Of a stretch of 64,000 bases of DNA, positions 4,656 through 63,894 are shown one piece after another. A program made the translations under genes and the position numbers. The notes under the pieces were generated by a model that made no database searches, was not told the origin of the DNA, and saw nothing but the letters and a program-made list of their open reading frames with translations. Position 1 is the stretch's first letter; each line of letters begins with the position of its first letter. Origin of the DNA: Eledone cirrhosa (taxonomy: Eukaryota); NCBI GenBank assembly GCA_964016885.1, contig OZ024743.1, positions 167,586,001 through 167,650,000 of the forward strand. The letters run 5' to 3'.

Positions 4656-4757
4656 GTCCTTCATCAGTGGCCTTCCAAACGTCCTAGGCATTTCATCACT
4701 TTAAAGGCCATATAACTCAGGTTGGTGCGAACAACGACTAAAAAAAGTAGTTGGGAC
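4656..4757 (-). ncRNA. Permuted/pseudoknotted hammerhead-like motif, subfamily A (inverted copy)
   Basis: gtcc caactact..agtcgttg t tcgc a ccaac ctga gtta TA tggcctt taaa gtga t GAAA tgcc tag ga cg tttgg aaggcca CTGATGA a ggac. Confidence 0.7.
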
Positions 4758-5254: not shown

Positions 5255-5356
5255 GTCCCAACGACTTTTTTTAGCCGTTGTTCGCACCAACCTGATGTAT
5301 ATGGCCTTTAAAGTGATGAAATGCCTAGGGCGGTTGGAAGGCCACTGACGAAGGAC
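5255..5356 (+). ncRNA. Permuted/pseudoknotted hammerhead-like motif, subfamily A
   Basis: gtcc caacgact..agccgttg t tcgc a ccaac ctga tgta TA tggcctt taaa gtga t GAAA tgcc tag gg cg gttgg aaggcca CTGACGA a ggac. Confidence 0.7.
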
Positions 5357-20708: not shown

Positions 20709-21296
20709 TAAAAAACAAAATAACAAAAAACAATAATGAAGAGTGCAGTACAAACAGTATTGGTATTAGGTTCCCGCTTAAGAGTGGGGATGGGGTGACG
20801 TTTCGGGCATAAGCCCTTCATCAGGAGAAAAGTGGGAAGGAAAGGAGTTCCGAGGGTGTGAGGGGGAGTGGTGGAAAGACATTGAAAGGGGAGGGATTAA
20901 AAAGAAGGAAAAAAAATGAAATGTGGTGAAAGGGTGTGAGGCGTGTAAAGGTGGTGGTGAGTGGATGGAGGGGAAGGGGGAGGAGGTAGAAGGAAACAGG
21001 GGATCCGAGCGAGGAGGGCGGAAGGTGGTGTGTGTGTATGTGTGTAGGTGTACGTGTGTGTATGTGTGGATGTGAGTGTGAGAGATTGTAGAAGAACGAG
21101 GTTCGTGTAATAGGAAAACCAGTGTGTACATGGGTGGGGTGTAAGTCGGCGTGTGTTCGCGTGGATGGAGAAGGGTCGGACGGAGTCCGGAGGCCGAGTA
21201 GGTGTATGCGTGGATACGCATGTGTGTGTGTGTGTGTTTTTGTGTGGTGTGGATACGTGGGAATGTATGGTTGCGTGTGTGCGAAAGTAGTGTAAG

Positions 21297-26462: not shown

Positions 26463-28620
26463 CAAATTTAGACGGGAAAAAACAGAGAGGCAGTCAAATA
26501 AAGGTTTATTAGGTTCACGCTCTTGAGAGTGGGGGGTTGGGGAACGACTTTTCGGGCATAAGCCCTTCTTCAGGATAAATAGGTTAGGAAGGGAGTTCCG
26601 AGGGTGTGTGGAAATACATTTAGAAAAAAGGGGAAGGAGAACAAATAAAAATAAAAATAAAAATAAAAATAAAAATAAAAATAAAAATAAAAATAAAAAT
26701 AAAAATAAAAATAAAAATAAAAATAAACGTAAGAATAAATAATAAAATTAACAAGTGGTGGAAGGGTGGTGGCGGGTGGAGTTGGGCGTGGGAGGCGGGG
26801 GGTCGAAGTGGGGAAGGCTGAGGTTGGTTGTGTATGTGTGTAGGTGTACGTGAGTGTGTGTGCGTGTGTATGTGAGAGGAAGAACGAGGTTCCATGTTCA
26901 GGAAAAGGTGTGTGCGTGGGGTGGAGTGTAAGTCGGTGTGTGCGTGTGGCAGGAGGGGGCGGGTGTGGGGGGAGGGGCGTGTGGTTTCCGCAGGTTGAGT
27001 GTGTATATGTGGGGGTACGCACGTGTGTGTTTGTTTTTATACGTAGTGTGGATGTGGGTGACTTGGTGCGAAAAGAAATGTGAGTGTATGTTCGTGGGTA
27101 AATTCCTGAGGTAGTTCAATCGAGTGTGAGAAGAGAGGCTGGATATTTTTCATGTTATGGAGTGGATGGCTGGAGAAATGCCCGGTGGTGTAGAATCCAA
27201 TGTTGGTGGTGGTCGGAAGTGGGGGGAAGTGGGGTGCGCGCGCAACGGGAAGTGGTCAGAGGGTCAAGGCAAGGTGAAGAGATAGCAGTAGAGCAGGATG
27301 AAGAGATAGCAGTAGAGCTGGATGACAAGTGGAGTAAGGTCAGTGTGGTGAGGACTGTGTGTGTGTCTGTGTGTGCAGAGGTGCGGTGGACAGGGGAGAG
27401 GATGGGTAGGTGTGAAGGGTGGAGGGGGAAGGTGGTGAAGTAGGGAAATGGGGTGTATATTAGTAGAGGTGTTAGTGGGATGTTAGTATTGTTAGTTGTG
27501 GGATGGGCCAAGGGGGTGGGGCGGTGAAAAGGGGAAGTTTGTTAGAGATGTTAGTGGGGAATGTGGACGAAGGGTGGGCGGTCGAAGGCTAAAGGAATAG
27601 GGGTGGGGAGTTCAGGCCGGGTGGTGTGTGGGTCTGGAGGGTGAAGATGGTGCGTTGTTCGACCGTGAGGCGGGTGGCAGGTCTTCCATGGCATTGGACT
27701 AGGCCACAGACTGTGAGGTGGTGAGCGGAGTGTCCAGGGGTGCGAAAGTAGCGGGTGATCGGGGAACTCCCGCTGAGGCGAATATCACGGAGGTGTTCCG
27801 TGAAACGGTCCGCCAGGCGACGTCCAGTCTGTCCGACGTAGGTTGCGTTGCACTCCGTGCAGCGAAGTCCATAGACTAGGTTGAAGGAGGTGCAGTGGAA
27901 GGTGTGCCAGACAGAGAGAGAGTGGCCGTTAGGACCATGGAAGGTGGTGGTGTTGGTGGTGTGAGGGCAGGTGTGGCAACGAAGCCTGGAGCAGGGAAGT
28001 GAACGGGGGGGGGGGAAGAGCGTGGATTGGGGTAGGGAGCTGTGGACGAGAAGGGTGCGGAGATTGCGTGCGCATTTGAAAGAGGGGAGGGGTGGGGATG
28101 GGAAGATGGGGGAAGTGGAGTGGTCGGACTGGAGGCGTCGGAAGAGGCGGAGGATGGTGGGGTGGAGGGGTAGGGTGGAGTGGTGGTAGGTGATGGGGAA
28201 GGGGAGATGGTGGGTGGGTGTGCGGTGGCGTGGGATGAGGACGGTGGAACGGTGGACAGCACGGGCGCCTAGTGAGGACGGTGTGGACGAGGTAGGGGGG
28301 TAACCTCGCCGGATGAAATGGCTGACTAGGGAAAGGGCTTGGGACTCAAAATCAGCATCTCGGCTGCAGAGGCGGCGGATCCGGAGGAGTTGGGAGTAGG
28401 GAATAGAGTGTTTAGTGTGTGTAGGGTGGGAGGAGGTTAAGTCGAGGTAGGAGTGGGAGTCGGTGGGTTTGAAGAAGGCGGAGGTGACGAGGGAGCGATG
28501 GGAGGGGTCGATGGCGATGGAGATGTCTAAGAAGTGGACGTGGTGGTGGAGATAGAGGTGGTGAAGTGGAGGGAGGGGTGGAAGGAGCAGAAGAAGGAGA
28601 CGTTAACAAAGTGTAAAACG
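26460..28620 (-). mobile_element. 5'-truncated C-rich Neptune-like PLE (RT C-terminus + GIY-YIG, frameshifted)
   Basis: It reads FHPSLHFT..VHFLDISI..FFKPTDSHSYL..SSHP..SIPYSQLLRIRRLCS..RGYP and PCSRLRCHTC..NLVYGLRCTECNATYVGQTGR. It is homologous to 20706-22478. Confidence 0.9.
26546..26573 (-). ncRNA. Minimal hammerhead core
   Basis: CTGAAGA-A-GGGC ttat GCCC-GAAA-AG-TC. Confidence 0.55.
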
Positions 28621-29272: not shown

Positions 29273-30836
29273 TAGTTGCATTTATCTTGCTTTATGTTCA
29301 TACGAGTTATCACCAAGTCACAACCAGTGACCTCAAGAGACAACAAGGTCCACAATGTTCAAGAAAGAACATACATACTCAAACATGCATCTTTAGTGTT
29401 TAGACTTGTGATGTACTTATATTGACAGAATCTTCCTTAGTATATGGGCAGTTCCCATTAGTACTATCTTTTGTATTTCTCCTATACGCGGGTTTCCTGG
29501 GATTTGCGATAAGTAATCATTAGACCCCTTAGGTATCATTCCCAGAGCGCCTACAACCACTGGTATTGTTTTAGTTCTCAATTTCCACATTTTTCCAATT
29601 TCTATCTCCAGGTCCTTATACTTGCTCAATTTTTCAAATGTTTTTATAGATACATTCTTGTCTATTGGAACGGACATATCAATTAGCAGGCATACCCTCT
29701 TTTTAAAGTCCTTCAATATTATATCAGGTCTATTTGCATCTATTTTTCGGTCTGTTTGGATGCTAAAGTTCCACAAGATTGAGATGTGATCTTTTTCAAG
29801 TATGGGAGGTGGTTGATGCTCGCACCAATTCTTTTGATGGGGCAGGTCAAAATGCTTACACATTATCTAATCTATGTATTGTGCAGCTCTGTCATGCCTG
29901 TTTAGGTATTCGGTTGGAGCTATAGGACTGCACATTGAAATTATATGGTCAATGGTCTCAGGTTGTTTTTTGCATACACGGCATAATGGGCTGCATCCAT
30001 TTTTTATTATGTTGGCTTGGTAATTTTTTGTTGGCAGATACTGATCTTGTGCCAATATAATCAGTCCTTCAGTCTCCGATTTCCGTCCAGAGGATGCCAA
30101 GCACTGATGGGTTAAAGTTTTGTCAACATCAGGATTGTTAGCTCGCTCTGGGTATTTTCCTTACAGAGGCTTTTCTTGCCATTTCTTAGCCAGTTTTTGT
30201 AGCAGTTCTTTCTTTGCAGTTACTTTTACCTGCTTTCCTTTTTCTGTGTTTTCCATTTCAGCAGTAAATGGGACTTCTGAAATTTGTAGTCCATTACTGT
30301 ATCTTTGTGCATCTTTTGTAATGGAATATGATCTTTTGATGCTTTCGTGTTTCAAAACGAGTTTGTTCATCCAATCATGTGATTCCCTTAGATATGTAGA
30401 TAATCCAATTGTTGCAGTTTTCAACGCAATGTCTAACTGGACTAACCCACGTCCTCCTTCTTTCCTAGGGAGATATATTCTATCTATATCTGCCTTAGGG
30501 TGATGCATCCTGTACATGGTTAAGAATTTTCGAATTTTTGTATCGAGCCTACGGATCTCTGTGCTTGACCAATTGATGACATTGTAACTGTAGGTTACTA
30601 CTGGTATGGCAAGCGTGTTTATGGCATCGATCCTATTCCTTACATTCAATTCCGTTCTTAAGATTGCTGTAACATTCCTTCCTTACCCTTTCCCTCATTG
30701 TCGAGTGCTTGATTCCGTCTCCTTCACAAACACCTAGATATTTGTAAGTTTTTTCTTGATCAAGTTCTCTTATCACGTTCCCCCGATCAAGATTAATGTC
30801 TGAACTCTTCAGCAGCTTTCCTCTGGTGAACGTTGC

Positions 30837-30837
<1 letters not shown>
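29273..30837 (-). mobile_element. 5'-truncated Dong/R4-type RLE non-LTR retrotransposon (family 1), decayed
   Basis: Motifs RIYLPRKEGGRGL, CRVC..ETIDHIISMC (CCHC), RHD and NRPDII..LIDMSVP..KYKDL (RLE). (TAA)n lies on both sides. Confidence 0.9.
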
Positions 30838-30892
<55 letters not shown>

Positions 30893-30905
30893 GTTATTGT
30901 TATTA

Positions 30906-32167
30906 CTCCTTGAGTCTCAGTCATTGATGTTAGTTAACTGGAAAGTTTGTTGGAATGAATATCAAGCCACTACCTGCAGCCTCAGATATTCAGGACGTAT
31001 CGGAGGGTTCTTGCTGTTCCCAGTAAGCATGCCTTTTGAAGCGTTCCAAAAAGCGTGAAGGGACCGATTTTCTTTAACCATCCCTGGAAACTTTTGGAGA
31101 TAGTCCCCAGTGCGCCTATGACAATCGGGATTACTTTGACTCCATGGCAGTTCCAAATCCTCTTTACCTCCCACTTTAAGTCCTGGTATCGGTTAATTTT
31201 CTCCCTCTCCTTCTCTTGCACTCTCGTGTCGAATGGGCAGGCCACATCCACAATCAGGCACGATCTTTTTTCTTTGTCCACAACCACCAGGTCAGGTCTA
31301 TTGTGTTCCAGTTTCTTGTCCGTCTGTATCCTAAAATCCCACAGCACCTTCACCTGATCGTTCTCTATCACCGACTCTGGCTTATGCTCATACTATTTCT
31401 CAGAATGTGGTAAATTGTTTACTTTGCACAGGTGCCAGTGGATCACCCTGCCCATCACATCATGTCTCCAGCCCTTATAGTGGGTCTGGGCTAGGTGTTT
31501 ACACTCGAATACAATGTGAGCCACAGTCTCCTCTCTCTCTCCACAGATCCTGCACAGTGGTCTAGCCTCCTCCTTGTAAATATGGTGTTTCAACCACTTC
31601 GTTTTGAGGGCCTGCTCCTGCGGAGCCATTAACATTCCTTCTGTAGCCTTTTTAAGGTCTCCTCTTCTCAACCAGTTCCATGTCTGTGGATCTCTAAATT
31701 CAGTTTTCTCAAATAAGGTACTATGAAGGGATTTTTCCTGAAGGCTGCTCTTTCTCCTTGATGTTATTTCCTCCTTGGACATCCCCTGGCCTATTGTCCC
31801 CTCCTTCAGTACAGTTCTGAGCATTGGCTCCTTACTATCAGTCACGTATTTGTGGAGGTTTTTTTTCTCCATCTGAACACAGTCCTCTATGCTGATAAGA
31901 CCTCTTCCACCCTCAGATCTCCTTAAGTAGAGTCTATCGACATCACTCCTCTTGTGGAACATGTTGTAGATAGTCAATAGCTTCCTAGTCTTTCTATCCA
32001 TTTCTTTTTGTTCAGCAACATCCCATCTCAGAATTCCCGCACTGTACCTAATAATAGACACAGCTCGGGAATTTACTGCGCTTATGGCATTTCTGCTGTT
32101 CACATGTGACTTCAATACGCTCCTTACTCTCCGAATGTATTCAGTTCTTAACAATTCCTTCATTTTT
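30906..32167 (-). mobile_element. 5'-truncated Dong/R4-type element (family 2, copy 1)
   Basis: ORFs at 31393-32163 and 30982-31371 contain the CCHC and RLE (HNRPDLVVVD) motifs. Confidence 0.92.
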
Positions 32168-32169
32168 TA

Positions 32170-32205
<36 letters not shown>

Positions 32206-32206
<1 letters not shown>

Positions 32207-35200
32207 CTTGAATCTCAGTCATTGATGTTGGTTAACTGGAAAGTCCGTTGGATTGAATATCAAGCCACTACCTGCAGCCTCAGATATTCAGGACGTATCG
32301 GAGGGTTCTTGCCGTTCCAAGCAAGCATGCCTTTTGAAGCGTTCCAAAAAGCGTGAAGGGGCCGATTTTCTTTAACCATCCCTGGAAACCTTTGGAGATA
32401 GTCCCCAGTGCGCCTATGACAATCGGGATCACTTTGACTTCATGGCAGTTCCAAATCCTTTTCACCTCCCACTTTAGGTCCTGGTATCGGTTAATTTTCT
32501 CCCTCTCCTTCTCTTGCACTCTCGTGTCGAACGGGCAGGCCACATCCACAATCAGGCACGATCTTTTTTCTTTGTCCACAACCACCAGGTCAGGTCTATT
32601 GTGTTCCAGTTTTTTGTCCGTCTGTATCCTAAAATCCCACAGCACCTTCACCTGACTGTTCTCCATCACCGCCTCTGGCCTATGCTCATACCATTTCTCA
32701 GAATGTGGTAGATTGTTTACTTTGCACAGGTGCCAGTGGATCACCCTGCCCATCACATCGTGTCTCCAGCCCTTATAGTGGGTCTGGGCTAGGTGTTTAC
32801 ACTCGGACACAATGTGAGCCACAGTCTCCTCTCTCTCTCCACAGATCCTGCACAGTGGGCTAGCCTCCTCCTTGTAGATATGGTGCTTCAACCACTTCGT
32901 TTTGAGGGCCTGCTCCTGCGCAGCCATTAGCATTCCTTCTGTAGCCTTTTTGAGGTCTCCTCTTCTCAACCAGTTCCATGTCTGTGGATCTCTAAATTCA
33001 GTTTTCTCAAAGAAGGTACTATGAAGGGATTTTCCCTTAAGGCTGCTCTTCCTCCTTGATGTTATTTCCTCCTTGGGTATCCCCTGGCCTACTGTCCCCT
33101 CCTTCAGTACAGCTCTGAGCATTGGCTCCTTACTATAGGTCACGTATTTGTATAGGTTGTTTTTCTCCATCTGAACACAGTCCTCTATGCTGATAAGCCC
33201 TCTTCCACCCTCAGATCTCCTTAGGTAGAGTCTATCGACATCACTCCTCTTGTGGAACATGTTGTAGATAGTCAATAGCTTCCTAGTCTTCCTATCCATT
33301 TCTTTTTGTTCAGCAACATTCCATCTCAGAATTCCCGCACTGTACCTAATAATAGACACAGCTCGGGAATTTACTGCGCTTATGGCATTTCTGCTGTTCA
33401 GATGTGACTTCAATACGCTCCTTACTCTCCGAATGTATTCAGTTCTTAACAATTCCTTCATTTTTTTGTTCTTTATGCCATCAGCCTCCAGAACGCCCAA
33501 ATACTTGTATCCTTCCTCAGAGTCAATTTCCTTTATCATCTCACCTGTTGGTATCTGGATCCCGTTACTTCTGCTCAACCTACCCCTCCTCATCACAATG
33601 ACTCCACATTTACCAATACCAAACTGCATACATATATCACTGCTGAAAATACGGACAGTGTCAACAAGCACATCCAACTCCTTCTCACTTTTCCCGAAGA
33701 GCTTAAGATCGTCCATGAAGAGGAGATGATTGATGGTAAGCTCTCCCCTTCCCAACTTGTATCCTGCTCTCACTTTTCGCAGCATAATGGTCAAGGGCAT
33801 CAGGGCAAGGACAAACAACAGAGGGGACAGGCTATCTCCCTAGAAGATACCTCTCTTGATCTTCACGCTTCCCAAGGATACTCCAGTTGATGTCAACTCT
33901 GTCTCCCAGGACCCCATACTCCTGCCCAGCAACTGTCTGATGTTATCTGCCACCCTGAAGATGTCCAGGCTTTTGGTGATCCAGGAATGAGGCACCATGT
34001 CAAATGCCTTTCTGTAGTCTATCCATCCCATGGCAAGATCAGTGTGTCTCCTCCTGCAATTCCCCATTACCATCTTATCAATAAGCAACTGGTCCTTTGT
34101 ACCACGTGACTTCTTTCGGCATCCTTTCTGTTCGTCCGGCAACAAGTTGTTTGTGTGGAGGTGATGGTAGATTTCCTCAGACACAATGCTCGTCAACAGT
34201 TTCCACATTACGGGCAGACATGTGATAGGTCTATAGTTGGTAACATCATTACCCTTGATTCGGTCTTTCATTATCAGAACTGTGGTACCTTTTGTCAACC
34301 ACTCTGGCACCTCACCCGACACCAAGCAGTCATTGAACATGGCCGTCAGCTTCGGGTGGAGGGATGTTAAATGTTTAATCCAATACCCCTGCACACCATC
34401 TGGGCCTGGTGATTTCCAGTTGGTTAGTTTTTTGGCTTGCCCCTTAAGAGTTTCAACTGTGATACTCAAATCAGTCTGTTGCTGTGCCTGCTCACCGATC
34501 TCCCTCTGTACTGTCTCAATCCACCCTGCCTGGGCATTGTGTCTAACATCCTGCTCCCATATTCCTCTCCAGAATGTTTTAGCTTGTTCCGCCCCAGGGA
34601 TCAAGTCGTTGCCTCTTTCTTTCCCCTCAAGCTGTCCAAACAGCATCTTCTGGTTGTTGTCGAACATGCGGTTCTGTTTATACTGACTGACTCTGTTCTC
34701 GTATCGCCTGATTTTGGCACTCTTTGCTACAATGCGTTGCTTCAATTCCTCTATGATAATATTTAGCTTTTTACTCCTAGTTTTGTATTTTATTTCCAGT
34801 CTATTTTTAGTGCCTATGTTTTTTAGTGTCCCATTCAGTAGTGACTCAAGCTTTCCTATGTCATTTCTCATTTCCCCGATTTGCCCACTCAGTCGCTTCC
34901 TCCACCACGGCTCTGCTCTTTCTTGTCTGTTGTTTCCTCTCGCTTTTATACCAAGTAGTTTCCTCACCGTATTTGCTGTTGCTTTGAGGATATTGTTGCA
35001 CTGGTGAAGACTCCTCGCCTCAAGGTATGGGATGACTTTGTTTACCCTAGCTGTTGTTTCTTTTAACTTTTTCCTGTCTACAAATCTTAGGTTCATAGGT
35101 CTCCCACTATCATTGTTCAACTCATCTACCACTAAATTTAGGATGTCAACCGAATCTTGTCCTAGCCCGTCAGCATTCATCTCCTCAGTGGCCGTATCTC

Positions 35201-35282
35201 TGTTCCAGGTATTATTTATCTCAGTATTCAGATCATTGTCTGCTTCGGGTGGTTCCTCCGTTCTCAGGACCTCCTCACCTTC

Positions 35283-35283
<1 letters not shown>
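32206..35283 (-). mobile_element. Dong/R4-type element (family 2, copy 2), RT-CCHC-RLE frame with a single nonsense codon
   Basis: Motifs KSPGPDG, YRPITCL, DYRKAFDMVPH, GIF*GD (TAG at 33840-33842, in frame), HLLFMDD, CRIC..H..C and RPDL..D. Confidence 0.95.
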
Positions 35284-35373
<90 letters not shown>

Positions 35374-35380
35374 GTTATTA

Positions 35381-35731
35381 CTCTTTGAGTCTCAGTCATT
35401 GATGTTAGTTAACTGGAAAGTTTGTTGAAATGAATATCAAGCCACTACCTGCAGCCTCAGATATTCAGGACGTATCGGAGGATTCTTGCTGTTCCAAGCA
35501 AGTATGCCTTTTGAAGCGTTCCAAAAATCGTGAAGGGGCCAATTTTCTTTAACCATCCCTGGAAACCTTTTGAGATAGTCCCTAGTGCGCCTATGACAAT
35601 CGGGATTACTTTGACTTCATGGCAGTTCCAAATCCTTTTTACCTCCCACTTTAAGTCCTGGTATCGGTTAATTTTCTCCCTCTCCTTCTCTTGCACTCTC
35701 GTGTCGAATGGGCAGGCCACATCCACAATCA
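35381..35731 (-). mobile_element. Short 3' fragment of the Dong/R4-type element (family 2, copy 3)
   Basis: It reads IVDVACPFD...RYVLNI and has the same 3'UTR as the other copies. Confidence 0.92.
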
Positions 35732-37778: not shown

Positions 37779-40161
<2,383 letters not shown>

Positions 40162-40231
40162 GAAGAATGGCATGCTGTGTTGTTGCGAATGTGCTACATA
40201 TGAGGTAAAAATTAGAAAGAGAAGCCGGGCC

Positions 40232-40335
40232 TATCCATCATCAGTGGTCTACTAGCCAACATAGGTATTTCTTCGCATTAAAGATCAGATACCTCCGGCT
40301 AGCGCGAACAATAACTAAAATAATTTATTGGGATA
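40232..40335 (-). ncRNA. Permuted hammerhead-like motif, subfamily C (inverted copy)
   Basis: tatcc..tcgc g ctagc cgga ggta TC tgatct ttaat gcga a GAAA tacc tat gt tg gctag t agacca CTGATGA t ggata. Confidence 0.65.
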
Positions 40336-40763
40336 AAAAGAATTGGGTGGGGAAAGATAGACAGGTAAACAAACAAGAATAGTGAGGCAACGTAAAGAGA
40401 GGAAAAATGAGAAAATCAAGTCAGTGATTCATTTGAACACAAGAACTTGCGAACATTGACGAGAAGACGAAAGACCATACGTACCGTGCGAAAAGTGAGC
40501 GAGGAAAGAATTTCGTACAGTGCCGGACGTTGGAGGAAGTGAGAGAGGGTGAGTAGCAGAGAGTGAGTGAGTGAAAGTGTGAGGAAGAGGCTAGCCGAGA
40601 GAAGGTGAATAGCAGATGGGGAGAATGAAAGTAAGAGGGAGAAGGAGAGAGAAGGGGGAGAGTTCAAATAAATCACTGACATGATTTTCTCAGTTTTCCT
40701 CTCTTTACATTGCCTCACCATTCTTGTTTGTTCACCTGTCTCTCTTTCTCCACCCATTTCTTT

Positions 40764-40867
40764 TATCCCAATAACTTATTTTAGTTATCGTTCGCGCTAG
40801 CCAGAGGTATCTGATCTTTAATGCGAAGAAATACCTATGATGGCTAGTAGATCTTTGATGATGGATA
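40764..40867 (+). ncRNA. Permuted hammerhead-like motif, subfamily C
   Basis: Same layout, with the core mutated to agatct-TTGATGA. Confidence 0.6.
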
Positions 40868-41317
40868 GGCCCAGCTTCTCTTTCTAATTTTTACTTCATA
40901 TGTATCACATTCGCAACAAAACAGCATGCCATTTTTCATTCCTATATGATTTCCTCTTCGCTGTGACCTGTCTTTTCCTCTTTCGTTACTGCTATCCTCT
41001 TTCTCTCTCCTTCTCCCTCTTACTTTCATTCTCCCCATCTGCTATTCACCTTCTCTCGGCTAGCCTCTTCCTCACACTTTCACTCACTCACTCTCTGCTA
41101 CTCACCCTCTCTCACTTCCTCCAACGTCCGCCACTGTACGAAATTCTTTCCTCGCTCACTTTTCGCGCGGTACGGATGGTCTTTCGTCTTCTCGTCAATG
41201 TTCGCAAGTTCTTGTGTTCAAATGAATCACTGAGTTGATTTTCTCATTTTTCCTCTCTTTACGTTGCCTCACCATTCTTGTTTGTTCACCTGTCTCTCTT
41301 TATCCACCCATTTCTTT

Positions 41318-41421
41318 TATCCCAATAACTTCTTTTAGTTATTGTTCGCGCTAGCCTGAGGTATCTGATCTTTAATGCGAAGAAATAACTATGATGGCTA
41401 GTAGATCACTGATGATGGGTA
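41318..41421 (+). ncRNA. Permuted hammerhead-like motif, subfamily C
   Basis: tatcc caataact..agttattg t tcgc g ctagc ctga ggta TC tgatct ttaat gcga a GAAA taac tat ga tg gctag t agatca CTGATGA t gggta. Confidence 0.75.
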
Positions 41422-41655
41422 GTCCCGATATTCTTTCTAATTTTTACTTCGTATGTATCATTCGCAACAACACAGCATGCCATTTTTCATTCCTATATGT
41501 GACCTGTATTTTTCTCTTCCATTACTGCTATCCTCTTTTTCTCTCTCCCCCTTCTCTCTCCTTCTCCCTCTTACATTCATTCTCCCCTCTTCTAGTCAGC
41601 TTCTCCCGGCTAGCCTCTTCCTGACACTTTCAGTCACTCACTCTCTGCTACTCAC

Positions 41656-42420
41656 CCTCTTTTCTATTATTATGTTTAGTAGTATTAGTAGGATAAAGTA
41701 TATATTTAATTTGTTCATTGCAACCGCTATTTTTAAGGGCCTTATTATAATAAGGGGCTGTTTTATTAAATATTTCATCAGAAGACGAGAGGGCTGATAT
41801 CCTACGACTAATATTAGGGATAAGGTTTTTAAATACTGTAGGGGCGGGCATGACCATCTATTTATATATTTTAAATTTTCATTAGGTTTATGATAAGATT
41901 TTAAAGAAGCAGTAAGCAAATCAAGATTAATATCGAGGAAGTTAGTTATAGTTAGATATAATTTGGTTTACACCACCCTTTTCATTACTAATGTAGGCAC
42001 AAATTTCCCTGATCTTTTTAGATAAGCATTTACCCCAACAACATTGTTATAATAAAATTTTTGATAGAAATTTGAACAAGATTAGTTCTTCTTGCAGTCT
42101 ATCTATGAAATCCAAGATTACCAACGGGAAAATACATAGAGAAAATCCAGGATGTTCTTGCAGAAATGCAGAAGAATGTCCTCTACAGGGCAAATCTAAA
42201 ATAAAATCTGTTGTATATGAGGCTAAAGTGACACCTGTAAACAGAAACCAACCAGCTTCAGAGGAGCGATATGTGGTCATGACTCAAGATAAATTCAAAC
42301 AAAGGTATTACGCACATGTCCTTTCCTTCAGACACTCGGAAAAAAGAAAACCTCGGCGCTGGCAAACAGAGTGTGGGAGATGAAATAACGTGTGATTCTA
42401 TATGTAATTGATTGGTTAAG
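41656..42420. pseudogene. Hydra-like PLE fragments in inverted arrangement (RT thumb on -, linker/GIY-YIG on +)
   Basis: Minus: NFLDINLDL..YHKPNENLKYI..NISRRISALSS. Plus: CSCRNAEECPLQG..VVYEAK..YVVMTQ. Confidence 0.85.
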
Positions 42421-44568: not shown

Positions 44569-44670
44569 TTTCCTCATCAGTTGTCTACTGGGGGTCTCGG
44601 ATATTTCAACACTTTAAAGACAATATATCTACCCCCAGAGTGTTCAATAACTGGGTAAATTATTGGGAAA
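44569..44670 (-). ncRNA. Permuted hammerhead-like motif, subfamily D
   Basis: tttcc caataatt..agttattg a acac t ctggggg ta gata TA ttgtct ttaaa gtgt t GAAA tatc cga ga cccccag t agacaa CTGATGA ggaaa. Confidence 0.75.
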
Positions 44671-47651: not shown

Positions 47652-49830
<2,179 letters not shown>

Positions 49831-49844
49831 CAAATATCTATATA

Positions 49845-50000
49845 TCTATATATCAAAAACAGAGGATGTCTGTCTGTTTCCCTAAAACTCGAGAAGTACC
49901 CAAACGTTTTTTTTCAAACTTTACACATGTAATCCGTATGGCCCCGGAAATGTTTTGAGCAAAAGAAAAATTTCAAATTATTCTGACCTCGGGATCGAAT
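49845..50000 (+). mobile_element. Possible Helitron 5' end
   Basis: A|TCTATATATCAAAAACAGAGGATGTCTGTCTGT. I did not find a matching 3' end. Confidence 0.4.
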
Positions 50001-53881: not shown

Positions 53882-53926
53882 TAAACAAATAATGAATAAA
53901 CAATTCCTTATATTAAACAAAAAAAG

Positions 53927-54080
53927 TTCATTATTTAACGATCGTTTCTAGGATATATATGTGTTAGAATTGGTATGCATATTCAACAGATCTATGTACA
54001 AAATTATACAAAATTATACAAATTATCAAGATTAAATATACATACCAACACATATATACGCCGTCTTCAGAAATAATGAA
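53927..54080 (-). ncRNA. Type I hammerhead with long stem II
   Basis: TTCATTATTT-CTGAAGA-cgg..TATATATGTGTTGG...CTAACACATATATA..cta-GAAA-CGATCG-TT-AAATAATGAA. Confidence 0.8.
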
Positions 54081-54717
54081 GTATATTTATTGATAATAAC
54101 AACAATTCAAAATTTCAGGTCCGTTTGGGAACAAAATTGACCAATGAAAACACAAAGGGTTAAATGCAGTTCGGTGTGTGTATATACATATAAAACCCTT
54201 ACACATATTTTACAAAAATGTATGTATAATTTGTATACGCATACTGAAAGGATGGATGCAAATACAAAATTTCAAGGTTAATGTCTCTGTAAGTTTATAA
54301 TGCACAGATAAGATGCGTATTGACACAAGTATGAAGTTAAGTATATAAATATATTTTTTCATACTCACACATATCCGTACAATCACACATACACGCGCGT
54401 ATATGCATAAATATACACATAACCACGAACATACAAACACACACACACCCCCACTCACATTTATATATGTGGATATAAAATCATAAGCACATGGATATTA
54501 ATTCACTCACATAAAACACTGGCACACACATTTTTAGAACAAGATACAGAAATTAGGTGGGAGGGGGGGGGGAGGTCAGTATTCAACGGTCTGAGCAGAC
54601 TGCCTAATATAGATGTATCTATAAACTAAGAAAATAAAAAATAATAAATAAACATTAAAGAGGAAAGAATAGAAAGAAAAAAGAAAAAAGAAAAAAAGAA
54701 AAAAGAAATATATCAAG

Positions 54718-54759
<42 letters not shown>

Positions 54760-54980
54760 CATATACATATATATATATACACACACACATATATATATAA
54801 TATAATATACATATATATACACATAGACACACACACACACATACATAAATATACACACATATACAAACACATACATACATATACACACATCCACACTAAG
54901 AACATACATACACACACATATATAAACATATACATATACACACATACATACATATACACATATACATACAAATACACATA

Positions 54981-55035
<55 letters not shown>

Positions 55036-55345
55036 GTATATACACGTACATATACACACATATATACATATAATCACACATACTATATAGACACACATAT
55101 ATATAACCACACACATACATGCACATATACAACACTTACACACTAATATACATACAGATATACACATACATAGCTATATATACACACAAATATATACAGA
55201 CTTACATATATACATACAGACAAATACTTACGCATCTATATATCGGTATATACATATAAACACCACTACACTATCACACAACTTAGAAATACAAAGAGAA
55301 AGGTATATACCTATACACACATACATATACAAATAGAAAAACATA

Positions 55346-55383
<38 letters not shown>

Positions 55384-55409
55384 TACACATATACATATTT
55401 ATATATAAC

Positions 55410-55440
<31 letters not shown>

Positions 55441-55666
55441 CATATACACATACACACACATACACATACACACACATACATACATGTACACACACATAGA
55501 AATATATACGCATACACACATACACACATACATATAAAGTCATACACACACAAACACCTACACGAACATACACATACACATATATAAAGATATATATACA
55601 CACACACACACAACACATACACACAATCACATATATATAAAAAAAATAAATAATAAAGATATATAC

Positions 55667-55725
<59 letters not shown>

Positions 55726-56074
55726 CATATATATATACATACACATACATACACACATACATAGACAAACATGTACATACATACACGTACATCGATATAC
55801 ATACATATATATATACACACATAGACATATACATACATACACACACAACTTACATACACACATATATATACATGTATATTCATACATAGAATTAGATATA
55901 TAATCATACATACATATGCACTTACTTATACTCATATATACAAATACATACGCATCCATATATGCGTATATACATAAAAACGCCACTACAACCTCACCTA
56001 ACTCAGACATACAAATAAAAATAAAAAGGCATATGTATATACATATATACACGCATTAATAGAGACATATATAT

Positions 56075-56121
<47 letters not shown>

Positions 56122-56366
56122 CACACATACATTCATATATATATATATATAGATACCCACACACACATACCACCATAAATACACATACAAACACCCACAT
56201 ATACATATATATACACACGTATATATATATATATATATACACACACATAAAAAACAGACATGCACATATATATATATATTTTTTTACACTTATATATACA
56301 CATATTATATACACATACACAACCTCACATATACACACATACACATAAGTTATATTATAATAATAA

Positions 56367-56419
<53 letters not shown>

Positions 56420-56504
56420 CATATATATATATATATACATATAGACATATACATACATATATACACACATACGAATATAGACATATAATCACACATAGAC
56501 ACCC

Positions 56505-56537
<33 letters not shown>

Positions 56538-58185
56538 TACATATACACAGACACATATACACACTCACATATATATGTGTGTGCACACACACATATATAC
56601 ACACATGCACATATATACACATAAACACATATATGTGCATACATGCACACACACACACATATATCACATAGATACGAAGATAGACATATAAATAGAGAGA
56701 CATACATATATATACACAACACACATACACACACATACAAACACACACATATACATATACATATATATACATATATATATATTTCTATATATACATATAT
56801 ACATATATATATATATACATACATATATATACATACACATATACATACACACATTCACATACACATACATATATACATGCATATATACACATATATACAT
56901 ACATACACACACTCATATATACACACACAATCTTACATTCATATTTGCATGCGCATATATGTATTTTTATATTCAGATATAAATACCCAAACCTATATAG
57001 ACACCTACCTACATATATATTCATACATACACGCATACAAATACAGATGATAATAGTATGGGGGAAAGGGGGGGTTTGGAGAAGGGGATCATAGTAAATA
57101 TATGTTTCAAGAAACATAGAATATTTTCCGTATCTTGATCCAATGTATGTTTTTACATAGTTTCAGTGTTAGGAAATACAACAAACAAGAACTAAGGCAA
57201 AATCTATGCATCTCAAAATAAACAAGTATACCATTAATTATATGTTAACTAAACCAAAGATAGTTAACATATTGATTTCTAAGGTGTAAATTAGTTAGGT
57301 TTATAATATTTGAAGCAGAATTTTGAAGTTAAATAGTAGTAGAGTATTAATTATAGTATAACTAAATTAAAGTTAATAACGTTATGGTATCAATATTAGG
57401 AAATGAATTTAGTAATAGGGAAAAAACAAATAAAATAAAGTATTACATCGGTAGTAGAATATAAATTATAGGTTAACTAAATTAAAAATTATATATTTAT
57501 TTCTATAGTATATGTTAATTAGGTATATAATACATAAAACAGATATTGTATTTTATCAATAGCATAATATAATTATATGCAAATAGACATCAAAATTAAT
57601 ACATATACATATACATATACATACACATACATACATACATATATATACACATATATATATATATACACATATACACATATACATACACACACACATACAC
57701 ATACACATATACATATACATATCTTTTTCAAAAAATTGCATAGAATATATTAACTAGGTATATATCCAAAACACATCCCATTCTATGAATTACATGACCT
57801 TCTGCAATTCGTCTGTATAAGGATACTAATTTTAAGCAAATTAAAAATAAAATTTTTAGGTTGATTAAAATTAAAACCAAATTATAAATATATTTCTAAA
57901 ATGTATATTAATTAGGTCTATAATACTAAAAATTATTTCTCTGTCATTGGATACACGATATTATTTTGTTATATTTTATCTGTAAAAGAATTATAATAAA
58001 AGGTTTAAATAAATTAAAATTAATTTATAAATTAAATTACTAAGTATATATTAGTAATATTTAAAGGTTTTTCACAATTTATGATTACATAATATTTTAT
58101 ATTCTCATCTGTAATAAAATTTTAATTAAATTAAATTTATAGGTTAAATAACATTTAAATTAAATTAATTTCTAAAATAATGTTA

Positions 58186-60648
58186 TTAATTAGGTTTATA
58201 ATATTTAAATGTTTTTTTTAGTTTATGATTACACGATATAATTAATTCCTGTCGTTTATTTAATAAGATATCCTTAGACTTCATTATTTCAAATAGTTCT
58301 TGGGAACATAATCTACATTCATTTCTATTATTTTGATAAGGGGTGGCTCTTTTGAGCACACTCCAGGTCAAATCATATTCTATATTCTTATTTTTATAAC
58401 TATTGATTTTTTCTGCTAGAGATGTTGTATTAGCCAGTGCGGCATTTTTAAAACTATGCTTGTGGGTATTAAACCTTGTCTTAAAATTGTTAGAGGTAGC
58501 TCCTATATATGAGCAAATAGAATCTTTAGTTTTAACATTACATTTATAGACTATGTTGTTAACAAGACAATTCCCTTTTAATGGGCAGTTTGCTTTGTTT
58601 CTACAGTTACATCCTTTCGTTAATTCTGTATTTGAGGAGATATTATGGTTAATTTGATGTACTGGTGGTATACTTATGGTTTTCTTACATTTATATGCAT
58701 TATAGGCACTTATATTTTGTTTTATGTTATTTGTTGTAGAGTATGAGAATTTAACTGTAGACCTATTTAAGATTTGATGGTATTTGTGGTTTGGCGGGAA
58801 GTTTTTCTCAAGGATATAAAAAAATTTTTTAGCAATATTATCCTTAACTTGTAAATTAAAAGGAGCATTATACCAAGTAACCCGTCTATTACGGTTTCTA
58901 TGTTGTTTATTATTTTTATTATTTTTATAGGTTGTATCGTGATTTTTACTAGGAGGATTAATGTTAATGATCTCACCACAACTATTTTTAGTTATATTTG
59001 TAGATTTAGGTGTTTTATCCTTTTTATTAGGAGTTTTATTATTAATATTTATTAGAGTTGTATGATGAGTAGTTTTTTGAGAGTTACTATACTTTATATT
59101 AGAAGATTTGGTATTTTGGGGTATAGTGTGGGTGGCATTTAGGTGTGTACTTTTCATTTGGTGTTTGTTGGTAATATTATGTTGTATGCTTTCAGTATTT
59201 TTAGTAGAAGGTATATACTCTAATCTATTTTTGTGGCCACTTCTATCTAGAGCTTCGTTATAGAAGGTCGCATTTTTATCAAATACATCTTGGTTAGAAG
59301 AAAGGTTAGAAATTCTAAGTGATATATTATATGCAAGGTTTTTAAGGATAGATTTAGGGTGATTAGATTGTGAGTGTATGTAATGTAAGTTTTGGTTAGG
59401 TTTATGGTAAGGTTGGTAGATACCCGTAGCTAAATCTAAAGTTATATCTAGGAAATTTACTACTTTACTTGTTTTTTCAAAAGTAATATTAAGATTATAA
59501 TAGTCTTTAAGGAAAGTTCTAATAAGTTTTTTGTTTTTTTCAATTTCTGAAAGGCTAAGGTTGTTAGAAAGAAGAAGACAGTCATCACGATATAAACCAC
59601 CTTTGAGGTGGGGAAAAGAGGCATTTATGTTGAAAAGGAGAAAGAGGCCCACAAGATCAGTAATTTGGGCGGAATCGCTTGAACCCATAGTAATATCAAA
59701 AAGATTACTATATGTGTTTCTGGTCCAGTATTCATTCTGAAATTCAATAAGTGTTAGTCTAGCATGTGTAATAATATTAATGTCATCCAAAGTTAAGTTA
59801 GATCTATTTTTAGCAAATATCAATGCTTTGTTCAGGAGTATAGGTGATATAGAAGAATAGTAATTATCTATATCAAATTGTAGGAATGAAGCAGAAGATT
59901 TACACCTAATATTTTTAAACCAGTTAATTACCTGGGAGGTGTTTTCCCAGAGTGGTAAAATAACGTATTTTCTTATTTGTGGGATGACTCTATCTAAAAT
60001 TTTTTTGCTAATTATTCCAATATCTGATTTGGAGGGACATATAAGTCTAATAGAAGGATTTGAGTTAAAGTTAGATTTGTGATCCTTCAGGTTGAAGTGT
60101 GGTCTTTTCAATGCCAAAGGTTCAGTTCTATCTTCAATGTTTAGTTTTTTTACTATGTTGTGTGTTTTGTTGTTGATGTTGGTGAGTGACACATTATTAG
60201 ATTTTTTATAATTTTTTCTGAGTTCTTTATATATGAACTCGTTATAATGTTCAATATCCATATGATACAAGTTACCAGTTTTGTCCGAGTGGACATGGAT
60301 TTTTTTAGACTTTTTTAGGTCCAATAGGGTAGAATCAAGGTCCTTTTGAAAGACGGATTTATACTTTTTAAATTTGAGGTGTTTAATTAAATTAAAAAGG
60401 TCTTTCTCGAAGTCTTCAAGTAAAAAGTTGTGTGGTGGATTCTTGTAAGTATTGAAATCATACATATATTTCCGATCTGCTTGTTTAGATTTTCTATCGA
60501 AGTGGTAGGCTCTCCATCTAACCCTTCTGATAAAATTATTAGTTTTCTGAATCATAAGGAGTAAGAAGTCATCCTTAGAAGGTATTGGTATGTTTTTTAA
60601 GGAGGTTCCTAAATATTGTTTTTCCATTGTGATATGGATGATGGACAA
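58186..60648 (-). CDS. Intact PLE protein: RT + CxCx5C linker + C-terminal GIY-YIG (likely ATG at 60627)
   Basis: Motifs SLKNIPIPS, RWRA, SDKTGN, LKDHK, FDIDNYYSSI, MGSSDSA, GLYRDD, NFLDITLDL, CNCRNKANCPL, IVYKC..SYIG and CRLC..CNH. Confidence 0.93.
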   Translation of the reverse strand: MSIIHITMEKQYLGTSLKNIPIPSKDDFLLLMIQKTNNFIRRVRWRAYHFDRKSKQADRKYMYDFNTYKNPPHNFLLEDFEKDLFNLIKHLKFKKYKSVFQKDLDSTLLDLKKSKKIHVHSDKTGNLYHMDIEHYNEFIYKELRKNYKKSNNVSLTNINNKTHNIVKKLNIEDRTEPLALKRPHFNLKDHKSNFNSNPSIRLICPSKSDIGIISKKILDRVIPQIRKYVILPLWENTSQVINWFKNIRCKSSASFLQFDIDNYYSSISPILLNKALIFAKNRSNLTLDDINIITHARLTLIEFQNEYWTRNTYSNLFDITMGSSDSAQITDLVGLFLLFNINASFPHLKGGLYRDDCLLLSNNLSLSEIEKNKKLIRTFLKDYYNLNITFEKTSKVVNFLDITLDLATGIYQPYHKPNQNLHYIHSQSNHPKSILKNLAYNISLRISNLSSNQDVFDKNATFYNEALDRSGHKNRLEYIPSTKNTESIQHNITNKHQMKSTHLNATHTIPQNTKSSNIKYSNSQKTTHHTTLININNKTPNKKDKTPKSTNITKNSCGEIININPPSKNHDTTYKNNKNNKQHRNRNRRVTWYNAPFNLQVKDNIAKKFFYILEKNFPPNHKYHQILNRSTVKFSYSTTNNIKQNISAYNAYKCKKTISIPPVHQINHNISSNTELTKGCNCRNKANCPLKGNCLVNNIVYKCNVKTKDSICSYIGATSNNFKTRFNTHKHSFKNAALANTTSLAEKINSYKNKNIEYDLTWSVLKRATPYQNNRNECRLCSQELFEIMKSKDILLNKRQELIISCNHKLKKTFKYYKPN

Positions 60649-60970
60649 TTGAAAGAGCTCAACTAAATGTATATGGGTTTACAAAATCATACATATATAT
60701 ATGTATATACATAAATATAAAATTAATACACACATACAGTACAAAAATACGAATATTTCCGTGAAAATAGGAGCAAAATTATGTAGATAAATCTACCAAG
60801 AGTTTACGGTAGTGTCCAATCCGTATGAAGAACTCAATGTATTCCGGATATCATGGAAAGAAGAGATGTAATGAAAAATCACTTTCGGTGAAAGATAAAC
60901 GGTATACAGAGTCAAGATAAAATATTAAACAAATAATGAATAAACAATTCCTTATATTAAACAAAAAAAG

Positions 60971-61124
60971 TTCATTATTTAACGATCGTTTCTAGGATAT
61001 ATATGTGTTAGAATTGGTATGCATATTCAACAGATCTATGTACAAAATTATACAAAATTATACAAATTATCAAGATTAAATATACATACCAACACATATA
61101 TACGCCGTCTTCAGAAATAATGAA
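60971..61124 (-). ncRNA. Second copy of the long-stem-II hammerhead
   Basis: Appears identical to 53927-54080. Confidence 0.8.
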
Positions 61125-61768
61125 GTATATTTATTGATAATAACAACAATTCAAAATTTCAGGTCCGTTTGGGAACAAAATTGACCAATGAAAACACAAA
61201 GGGTTAAATGCAGTTCGGTGTGTGTATATACATGTAAAACCCTTACACATATTTTACAAAAATGTATGTATAATTTGTATACGCATACTGAAAGGATGGA
61301 TGCAAATACAAAATTTCAAGGTTAATGTCTCTGTAAGTTTATAATGCACAGATAAGATGCGTATTGACACAAGTATGAAGTTAAGTATATAAATATATTT
61401 TTTCATACTCACACATATCCGTACAATCACACATACACGCGCGTATATGCATAAATATACACATAACCACGAACATACAAACACACACACACCCCCACTC
61501 ACATTTATATATGTGGATATAAAATCATAAGCACATGGATATTAATTCACTCACATAAAACACTGGCACACACATTTTTAGAACAAGATACAGAAATTAG
61601 GTGGGAGGGGGGGGGGGGGGGAGAGGTCAGTATTCAACGGTCTGAGCAGACTGCCTAATATAGATGTATCTATAAACTAAGAAAATAAAAAATAATAAAT
61701 AAACATTAAAGAGGAAAGAATAGAAAGAAAAAAGAAAAAAGAAAAAAAGAAAAAAGAAATATATCAAG

Positions 61769-61828
<60 letters not shown>

Positions 61829-62047
61829 CATATACATATATATATATACACACACACATATATATATAATATAATATACATATATATACACATAGACACA
61901 CACACACACATACATAAATATACACACATATACAAACACATACATACATATACACACATCCACACTAAGAACATACATACACACACATATATAAACATAT
62001 ACATATACACACATACATACATATACACATATACATACAAATACACA

Positions 62048-62104
<57 letters not shown>

Positions 62105-62408
62105 GTATATACACGTACATATACACACATATATACATATAATCACACATACTATATAGACACACATATATATAACCACACACATACATGCACATATACA
62201 ACACTTACACACTAATATACATACAGATATACACATACATAGCTATATATACACACAAATATATACAGACTTACATATATACATACAGACAAATACTTAC
62301 GCATCTATATATCGGTATATACATATAAACACCACTACACTATCACACAACTTAGAAATACAAAGAGAAAGGTATATACCTATACACACATACATATACA
62401 AATAGAAA

Positions 62409-62454
<46 letters not shown>

Positions 62455-62480
62455 TACACATATACATATTTATATATAAC

Positions 62481-62511
<31 letters not shown>

Positions 62512-62733
62512 CATATACACATACACACACATACACATACACACACATACATACATGTACACACACATAGAAATATATACGCATACACACATACACACAT
62601 ACATATAAAGTCATACACACACAAACACCTACACGAACATACACATACACATATATAAAGATATATATACACACACACACACACACAACACATACACACA
62701 ATCACATATATATAAAAAAAATAAATAATAAAG

Positions 62734-62800
<67 letters not shown>

Positions 62801-63151
62801 CATATATATATACATACACATACATACACACATACATAGACAAACATGTACATACATACACGTACATCGATATACATACATATATATATACACACATAGA
62901 CATATACATACATACACACACAACTTACATACACACATATATATATACATGTATATTCATACATAGAATTAGATATATAATCATACATACATATGCACTT
63001 ACTTATACTCATATATACAAATACATACGCATCCATATATGCGTATATACATAAAAACGCCACTACAACCTCACCTAACTCAGACATACAAATAAAAATA
63101 AAAAGGCATATGTATATACATATATACACGCATTAATAGAGACATATATAT

Positions 63152-63196
<45 letters not shown>

Positions 63197-63290
63197 CACA
63201 CATACATTCATATATATATATAGATACCCACACACACATACCACCATAAATACACATACAAACACCCACATATACATATATATACACACG

Positions 63291-63322
<32 letters not shown>

Positions 63323-63445
63323 TAAAAAACAGACATGCACATATATATATATATTTTTTTACACTTATATATACACATATTATATACACATACACAACCT
63401 CACATATACACACATACACATAAGTTATATTATAATAATAAAAAA

Positions 63446-63486
<41 letters not shown>

Positions 63487-63573
63487 CATATATATATATA
63501 TATATACATATAGACATATACATACATATATACACACATACGAATATAGACATATAATCACACATAGACACCC

Positions 63574-63608
<35 letters not shown>

Positions 63609-63861: not shown

Positions 63862-63894
<33 letters not shown>

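Follow-up and report, generated by a model that had tools for sequence, protein, structure and literature searches.

Can a hammerhead ribozyme be assembled from its conserved blocks in an order other than that of types I, II and III, and what would such a ribozyme do for the DNA that carries it? The question is raised by a motif of about 100 nt that recurs in the window (the whole stretch of 64,000 nt of Eledone cirrhosa contig OZ024743.1 analysed here). The window is microsatellite-rich animal DNA with 36% G+C, lying within a 3.0-Gb assembly, and it is filled with fragments of Penelope-like and other retroelements. A sequence-only reading had listed seven full copies of the motif and a partial copy at 37894; their coordinates and strands all match, and the segment layout and the cleavage coordinates proposed with them (5301, 38410 and 41365 on the + strand, 44624 on the - strand) check out as well. 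The copies, assigned to subfamilies A to D, and the insertion that holds those of subfamily C are the following:

41318..41421, + strand: subfamily C copy of the candidate split type-SGC hammerhead, with one stem III mismatch relative to its own subfamily
40764..40867, + strand: subfamily C tandem copy, 554 nt upstream of the copy at 41318; core broken (C3>U)
40232..40335, - strand: subfamily C inverted copy; GA of the kink broken
4656..4757, - strand: subfamily A copy in the inverted part of an insertion at ~4646-5407; stem III mismatch
5255..5356, + strand: subfamily A copy; stem III mismatch and broken kink GA
37894..37937, + strand: subfamily B partial copy, 5'-truncated and beginning at A'; first of a tandem pair
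38364..38465, + strand: subfamily B copy
44569..44670, - strand: subfamily D copy; helices and core all intact, kink-turn variant with 2n = U
40152..41660, both strands: whole subfamily C insertion, non-coding and adjoining (TA)n; boundaries approximate

All these copies sit in non-coding tandem or inverted units of 470-690 nt that are retrozyme-like. The subfamily C insertion consists of an inverted unit (~40152-40662, - strand) placed back to back with ~1.8 tandem units (~40662-41660, + strand), and the copy at 41318..41421, within the latter, is divided as follows:

41318..41322, + strand: E strand; pairs with 41417-41421 and closes both ends of the motif
41323..41344, + strand: hairpin F of 8 bp, an arm of the putative four-way junction
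41346..41349, + strand: helper strand A; pairs with 41377-41380 and replaces the stem II strand that normally follows CUGANGA
41351..41359, + strand: 5' strand of helix B and non-bulged strand of the kink-turn (4n C, 3n U, 2n G, 1n A)
41360..41365, + strand: block S, with the 5' strand of stem III and U16.1-H17; cleavage predicted after 41365, the site being placed by analogy
41366..41371, + strand: stem I strand D, 3' of the predicted cleavage site; pairs with 41403-41408
41377..41389, + strand: block G, with the stem II strand (A', 11.1), GAAA (41382-41385) and the 3' strand of stem III
41390..41401, + strand: bulged strand of the kink-turn and 3' strand of helix B; 3-nt bulge at 41390-41392, 1b G, 2b A
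41403..41421, + strand: block C without its stem II strand, with D', CUGAUGA (41409-41415), 10.1 and E'

One of these parts, hairpin F, is absent in an old subfamily (loci L037 and L061, this genome, C1), in which the E and A strands are contiguous.

Core, crossing helices and copy number

The hammerhead core (C3 U4 G5 A6 N7 G8 A9, G12 A13 A14, A15.1-U16.1 and H17) is present in the motif. In hammerheads of types I, II and III the circular order of the blocks is CUGANGA > GAAA > UH and the stems are nested, whereas here the order is reversed. The sequence-only reading held that a core ordered UH > GAAA > CUGANGA needs crossing helices, and this is borne out, all the named helices being found to covary.

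The covariation was measured in an alignment (A2) of 30 diverged copies, hand-picked at one per subfamily, of which 17 come from this genome and 13 from metagenome contigs. Over helices A, B, III and I, 91.3% of the cells are paired, and two-sided compensatory changes occur in 20 of the 21 pairs tested. The covariation score of 0.855 was reached by none of 500 shuffles, and slid registers scored 0.09-0.19 with 29-46% paired. Stem I is 96% paired with two-sided changes in all six of its pairs, helix A is 93% paired with such changes in three of four, and stem III shows them in four of four. In all families stems I and III lie flush against the core, and each base is used only once. The pair 10.1:11.1, which had also been said to covary, forms in each of the seven copies of the window, whereas of the 30 diverged ones only 13 have it and nine have C/C instead. 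Pseudoknot-free folding of five window copies, a method blind to crossing helices, gave z values of -0.04 to -1.5.

The copies of this motif are not the product of chance. The fixed-spacing 3' half (GAAA N7 GA N14 CTGANGA) has 25,677 matches in the genome, against 347 for the reversed pattern; when the GA constraint is removed, the matches rise to 37,470, against 4,395 for the reversed control. The GA of the bulged strand, which is fixed by the pattern, accounts for ~25,300 of the ~33,100 excess matches obtained without that constraint, and the extra non-GA matches are partly other hammerhead families, including ordinary type I (L244, L245, L251, L252).

Most search patterns fixed CUGANGA and GAAA, while U16.1 and H17 were left free in the genome pattern. 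Counts at unselected positions were taken from the 71 of 100 examined copies that have intact 5' helices, and they count copies rather than independent events. In this set U16.1 is kept in 70 copies, and position 17 is A in 51, C in 20 and G in none. All 13 core bases are kept across lineages with little similarity in stem sequence, and only positions 7 and 17 and the 1.1-2.1 pair vary.

As the sequence-only reading had expected, standard descriptors miss the motif, Rfam giving no hammerhead match at E<=10 at the window or at four outside loci. Over the whole window only microsatellite-driven matches were seen among those listed (150 of 249), the stretch 40170-41660 gave no hammerhead among 10 matches at E<=10, and the four outside loci gave none among two matches at the same threshold. 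Because standard descriptors and Rfam miss it, the fold is probably unannotated in many fish and invertebrate genomes.

Relation to type SGC and to the kink-turn

The order UH > GAAA > CUGAnGA was taken by the sequence-only reading to be undescribed. This claim fails, since the order has been published as 'type SGC' (the HRIMA-1 motif and its variants; Eckert, Friedrich, Weinberg and Weinberg 2023, PMC10085705), a type described from virus-like RNAs. There it comprises 583 sequences from metatranscriptome-type data, and its ribozymes cleave in vitro at the predicted site at 0.007-0.19 per min, do so during transcription, and need all four helices; the same paper places none of its RNAs in the genome of a known organism, except for one GCS candidate. 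Stem II of the published ribozymes pairs the segment preceding GAAA with the one that follows CUGAnGA, in many cases across a single bulged U (PMC10085705).

The motif shares with type SGC the block order S, G, C, the core bases, the mutually crossing stems I, II and III, a short linker leading from stem I into stem II, a similar sequence of the U/A-rich linker and the G-block, and a helix that braces the far ends of stems I and II (the published 'I', here B). Helix B covaries and joins the same two strands as the published 'I' helix, which suggests that the two are equivalent in three dimensions. The second junction that had been proposed at the distal ends of the stems exists and corresponds to this 'I' helix plus the kink-turn. 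The motif differs from the published type in four respects: stem II appears to be supplied by a 5' helper strand that meets E and F in a four-way junction; both strands of the bracing helix continue into stem III via the putative kink-turn; the length is ~100-125 nt, against the published 50-104; and the setting is an animal genome and its retrotransposons.

None of 180 distinct copies fits the published SGC descriptor, and the canonical stem II has 0 bp in 23 of them, 1 bp in 148 and 2 bp in nine. At L279, L088, L093, L094, L107 and L114, helix E (10-12 bp), hairpin F and helix A abut with no unpaired base between them, and the helper supplies a G opposite C11.1; this combination of helper G and 11.1 C is found in 10 of the 30 aligned rows, nine of them outside records. 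In the autonomous elements, helix E starts at the base after A9, and their sequences point to a perfect four-way junction in which core, E, F and A meet, helix A serving as stem II and carrying the canonical G-C pair at 11.1. An active fold might not be compatible with a junction placed right at A9. The window families have a weak stem II, with an E of 4-6 bp, and the one-pair 10.1:11.1 'stem II' of the window is a derived, shifted state.

Taken as a whole, the motif would be an SGC circle whose opening lies between A9 and 10.1 and in which a kink-turn makes the closure from 'I' to stem III. The opening would fall where published SGC ribozymes often carry a bulged U (PMC10085705), and because the RNA is opened there, the stem II strand (A) would come from the 5' end, clamped by helix E and hairpin F in the four-way junction. 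The A strand would then run via helix B and the kink-turn into stem III, with B bent back alongside stems I and II. Such a motif appears to work like a type-SGC hammerhead, yet it fails one defining feature of the type, namely the uninterrupted block C with its canonical stem II.

Between helix B and stem III, a 3-nt bulge is followed by tandem G.A / A.G, an arrangement that by its sequence is a kink-turn. The two loops had been noted earlier as '(ctga)' and '(nnnga)', and both are present, but their identity as the two strands of a kink-turn had been missed. On the non-bulged strand, which was unselected, 1n is A in 69 of 71 copies, and 2n is G in 68 and U in three. We take the kink of subfamily C to be of the CUGA / UGAUG box C/D form, and the variant with 2n = U presumably resembles Kt-23.

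In the 30 diverged copies, 3b.3n is unpaired in 22, being the only position that is mostly unpaired, and it adjoins the tandem GA; 3b=C or 3n=G, but not both, occurs in 18 copies, -1b.-1n is C.G in 20, and 2n is U in six. Published kink-turn folding rules agree with the pattern at 3b.3n and -1b.-1n (PMC8191799; PMC4382518). With a standard kink-turn (Kt-7, box C/D; PMC8191799) the element shares the 3-nt bulge, the G.A and A.G pairs, a mostly C.G -1b.-1n and a non-Watson-Crick 3b.3n, and it differs in being embedded in a hammerhead and in being lost in one subfamily. In that subfamily (L062, L069, L249) Watson-Crick pairs replace the G.A pairs of the kink, so the kink-turn is not universal. 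The intact RLE family, described below, has an extra A in the kink.

No natural kink-turn hammerhead was found in the literature, as judged by titles and the beginnings of abstracts. Weinberg 2015 and Lunse 2017, which reportedly deal with hammerhead variants with extra or missing helices, lay outside the scope of this search, as did Repbase Reports. Within its scope, no hammerhead was described with a four-way junction at stem II in a retrotransposon, with a kink-turn in Penelope, or in HERO non-LTR elements, and type SGC is known from PMC10085705 alone. Passages of PMC10162972 gave nothing relevant.

Carriers of the motif

Metagenome contigs scanned with an 18-base pattern gave 43 matches, of which 26 were judged to be chance and 17 contain the whole fold with unrelated stem sequences. 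One locus (L100) passed the helix filter and was dropped as an AT-rich chance match, and another (L082) narrowly failed it and was kept for its 78% identity to L111 and L099. Eight of the 17 folds directly follow an RLE ORF and four more match those by DNA, while three come without upstream sequence and two (L090, L116) show no RLE ORF. Because they fall into about four sequence families, several of them sharing a sample, the 17 do not represent 17 independent cases. The two loci with no RLE ORF nearby apparently have another arrangement of E and F. In viral contigs, no locus passed the helix filter among those opened (80 listed of at least 120 stretches), and no relative of the RLE protein was found.

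The ORFs of carriers L093, L094, L111 and L114 end in a zinc knuckle and a restriction-like endonuclease, in which CxxC..H..C, RHD and RPD..E..K can be read; we take these to be the CCHC zinc knuckle and the PD-(D/E)xK endonuclease motifs. Full-length homologues of the L114 protein carry a reverse transcriptase (PF00078), and their hosts are teleosts, lamprey, lancelets and bivalves. The carrier clade is presumably HERO-like, an assignment made from the WLWLRR-type C-terminal end and the host range, without a tree against named elements. HERO is listed as an RLE clade in which some families target microsatellites (PMC4640811). In L114 the E strand begins ~13 nt after the stop codon, and in L094 the stop codon itself (L094:559-561) is the UGA of the kink-turn, and the ORF spans the 5' half of the predicted ribozyme fold.

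This genome was also searched with the L114 protein, not with the RNA, which returned 152 matches, 25 of them examined as loci. The motif stands directly after the ORF in 21 of these (some with deletions), is degenerate in two and is lacking in two. Twelve more RLE loci, judged by eye, add another two or three lineages in which the motif is degenerate, and a more distant RLE lineage (L275, L418, L419, L421, L422; 31-41% identity to the L114 protein) that has no motif after its ORF and offers a natural control for the influence of the predicted ribozyme on insertion structure. A helix-only scan of the 37 protein-found loci located the motif in 16, all of one lineage, and the core is kept in 15 of these; it gave eight spuriously high scores as well, owing to (TA)n or chance, and failed to detect the degenerate lineages.

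The RLE element ends ~28 nt after E', and the predicted cut lies ~90 nt inside its genomic 3' end. Copies are solitary or 3.6 kb apart, and the intact family is small, with 18 tail matches. RLE elements, too, end in (TA)n, and inversions are found in L325 and L330. At L279, L280, L319 and L326, a 3' piece of 611, ~876, 132 and 115 nt, respectively, is joined to the first base of the element, at the same junction in each; this head-to-tail joining is present in four out of four RLE copies seen to reach the element's 5' end.

At 80 scanned loci and in the window, the motif lies in non-coding units of 470-690 nt that are often tandem, often have an inverted 5' part and end in (TA)n; arrays of up to five units occur (L072), and the 3' ends are variable. 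Outside the ribozyme, the short units have no significant similarity to the RLE element, with a faint resemblance of the tail seen by eye. As to what moves them, the balance leans slightly towards the RLE element: the only autonomous carriers found are RLE elements, which have (TA)n ends, inversions and head-to-tail copies of their own.

It is almost as likely that the short units are moved by Penelope-like elements that took up the SGC ribozyme in place of a type I one. The 5' inversions and the tandem repeats in (TA)n seen among the short units are Penelope-like habits. A very active Penelope-like family is present, with 150 of 150 scored matches at 98-100% identity, against the 18 tail matches of the intact RLE family, and animal retrozymes have been proposed to be Penelope derivatives (bioRxiv 10.64898/2026.07.22.740005). 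Yet no Penelope ORF is consistently linked to the motif at the 80 loci scanned, and a Penelope unit with a 784-aa ORF (L457) lacks CTGANGA on both strands and does not resemble the short units, in a check that covered one of several Penelope families and one full unit. For that one family, the Penelope pLTR as the home of the motif was rejected on the same two findings, the lack of a consistent ORF link at 80 loci and of a core in one full unit.

Penelope-like sequences in and around the window deserve mention in their own right. The segment at 6749-8383 (-) belongs with L457 (C1:437202500-437206400) to a very young Penelope-like family with a 3,531-bp tandem unit and copies that are 98-100% identical. 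A direct repeat with a period of ~7,044 bp and very long microsatellite-rich flanks is formed by 53926-57000 and 60970-64000, and inside it lies a Penelope-like ORF of 830 aa (58186-60678, -).

Several known ribozyme-bearing systems can be set beside the present one. The non-LTR retrozymes of animals (Cervera and de la Pena 2020, PMC7229834; Li, Clavereau and Pollet 2026, bioRxiv 10.64898/2026.07.22.740005) are likewise non-coding, low-GC tandem units with one hammerhead each and a very high copy number. Their hammerheads are of type I, their units measure 170-400 nt and they are tied to Penelope, whereas here a split SGC fold lies in units of 470-690 nt; circular RNAs have been demonstrated for them. 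Held against the definition of a non-LTR retrozyme, the short units are non-coding tandem units with a hammerhead, and this hammerhead is not of type I.

Penelope pLTR hammerheads also have the ribozyme in a terminally repeated segment, a 3'-partial copy followed head to tail by a full one, and 5' inversions. The carrier here, however, has a reverse transcriptase with a restriction-like endonuclease rather than with GIY-YIG, and the present motif contains a pseudoknot, lacks a palindromic stem III and probably acts as a monomer. The HDV-like ribozymes of R2 and L1Tc (PMC6765202) similarly place a self-cleaving-type motif in a non-LTR element, and in tandem both come to lie upstream of the next 5' UTR; the motif here differs in being a hammerhead and in its position at the stop codon or 3' UTR, not the 5' end.

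Ordinary hammerheads are found in the window as well. The segment 4270-4385 (+) is an ordinary type I hammerhead, typical of Penelope-type elements, with a long stem II insert, a palindromic stem III and a core CTGATGA at 4286, and a second CTGATGA lies at 4379. Two CTGANGA ... GAAA motifs that are related to each other and have a short hairpin as stem II, at 20770-20850 (-) and 26515-26600 (-), are probably minimal type I hammerheads, the latter located ~1 kb 3' of a Penelope-like ORF (27589-28602). An inverted and tandem array at 47931-49853, with a unit of ~550 nt, is type I hammerhead-like with a palindromic stem III (cores at 48097, 48637, 48962 and 49516); a family related to it, of the ordinary retrozyme-like sort, is common in this genome alongside the permuted family (L244, L245, L251, L252). 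Finally, an RLE-type LINE of another clade, which we take to be R4/Dong-like, lies in (TAA)n at 30161-35731 (-); its 3' portions recur in part at 30906-32168 and 35381-35731, and its 3' end showed no hammerhead core.

Predicted cleavage, possible role in replication and biological meaning

By analogy with its published relatives, the motif is probably an active, cis-cleaving type-SGC hammerhead in a new build, predicted to cut multimeric transcripts for circularisation. Cleavage at the analogous site is documented for published SGC ribozymes that bear the same linker and G-block signature (PMC10085705). Like the ribozymes of retrozymes and Penelope elements (PMC7229834; bioRxiv 10.64898/2026.07.22.740005; PMC6765202), the one here would divide multimeric or read-through transcripts into unit lengths. 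The two ends of the cut RNA would stay paired through E, A, B and III, an arrangement favouring their sealing into a circle, and reverse transcription, starting just 3' of the ribozyme, would pass the sealed site and run for more than one lap, giving head-to-tail copies. What the data show directly are the sequence, the covariation, the number of copies, the place of the motif in the elements and the head-to-tail junctions; from these we infer the three-dimensional fold, the geometry of the kink-turn, cleavage, the circles and the identity of the enzyme that moves the short units.

Head-to-tail junctions, tandem arrays and short units whose 3' ends vary are all in keeping with copying of more than one lap. 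At all four head-to-tail RLE loci the upstream pieces extend past the predicted site (90 nt), so the copied template was uncut or resealed there.

Breakpoints were collected from 98 copies that were picked by sequence 3' of the core only and that are not independent of one another. The predicted site is run through by 81 of them, and only two end there. Their 5' ends fall within the 55 nt up to the site in 17 cases, in the next 58 nt in three, further up to 550 nt in 52 and beyond that in 26. The breakpoint rate is 0.0034/nt in the 3' fragment (17 events) and 0.0022/nt upstream (55), a ratio of ~1.6 with a one-sided p = 0.08, computed over copies that are not independent; no sharp peak is seen at the predicted site. 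A pile-up of breakpoints near the site, once considered as proof of cleavage in vivo, is not found in this unbiased sample, and the first excess was rejected because the sample behind it had required the 3' half of the core. As a separate observation, the stretch 77-113 nt upstream of E', which holds hairpin F and strand E, contains none of the 5' breakpoints of the 98 copies, and three fall in the 56-113 nt upstream of E' (0.0007/nt, against 0.0025 further up).

That most copies run through the predicted site with no breakpoint peak would also be expected if the fold, although derived from a hammerhead, barely cleaved or did not cleave, and served as a docking site for the reverse transcriptase at the 3' end, tandems then arising by template jumping or read-through. 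The motif does lie 3' of the ORF, the usual place of a LINE recognition element, and within tens of bases of the start of reverse transcription, and none of the 180 copies has a canonical stem II. Even so, docking in place of cleavage is unlikely. The covarying helices are compatible with the core, which stems I and III abut without double use of any base, and the 13 core bases persist among lineages whose stems have little sequence in common; the absence of G at position 17 in the 71 unselected copies follows a rule that matters for cleavage and not for docking. Genomic copies with an intact site are also left in tandem by retrozymes and Penelope elements whose ribozymes are proven (PMC7229834). 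The docking and ribozyme roles could coexist.

An ordinary trans hammerhead, with a core active only across two RNAs or strand-swapped tandem units, is very improbable: the short units do form tandem and inverted arrays, the stem II of the window families is weak (E of 4-6 bp) and some animal retrozymes carry minimal type I hammerheads that need to dimerise (PMC7229834), but within a copy the spacing does not vary by a single base from one animal to another, a palindromic stem III is absent, RLE copies stand alone or 3.6 kb apart, and published SGC ribozymes cleave while they are transcribed (PMC10085705).

Four aspects of the motif are new as judged from its sequence. It appears to be a non-circularly permuted (type-SGC) hammerhead in an animal genome, in ~25,000 copies; its stem II is seemingly rebuilt by a 5' helper strand that arrives via a four-way junction; a putative kink-turn joins stem III to the bracing helix; and, both here and in metagenome contigs, RLE-type (HERO-like) non-LTR retrotransposons carry the same predicted fold at their stop codon. 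SGC hammerheads were previously known from one paper, with hosts that could not be named, and they now have a biological setting at the 3' end of RLE retrotransposons. The RLE group includes R2 and is being developed for gene insertion. The split build breaks the published assumption that the CUGAnGA block is uninterruptible, and the kink-turn is offered as an answer to the published open question of geometry, namely how the bracing helix reaches stem III.

More tentatively, a clade of RLE-type LINEs that is widespread among fish, lancelets and invertebrates, together with its non-coding parasites, may replicate via circular RNA produced by a caged hammerhead that holds its ends for resealing, and the kink-turn may let a host protein of the L7Ae family (15.5K/Snu13 or L30) switch the ribozyme. 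If true, this would be, to our knowledge, the first LINE with a circular RNA intermediate and, in the literature searched, the first natural hammerhead with a kink-turn, and its permutation would split one of the three hammerhead blocks that were supposed to be indivisible.
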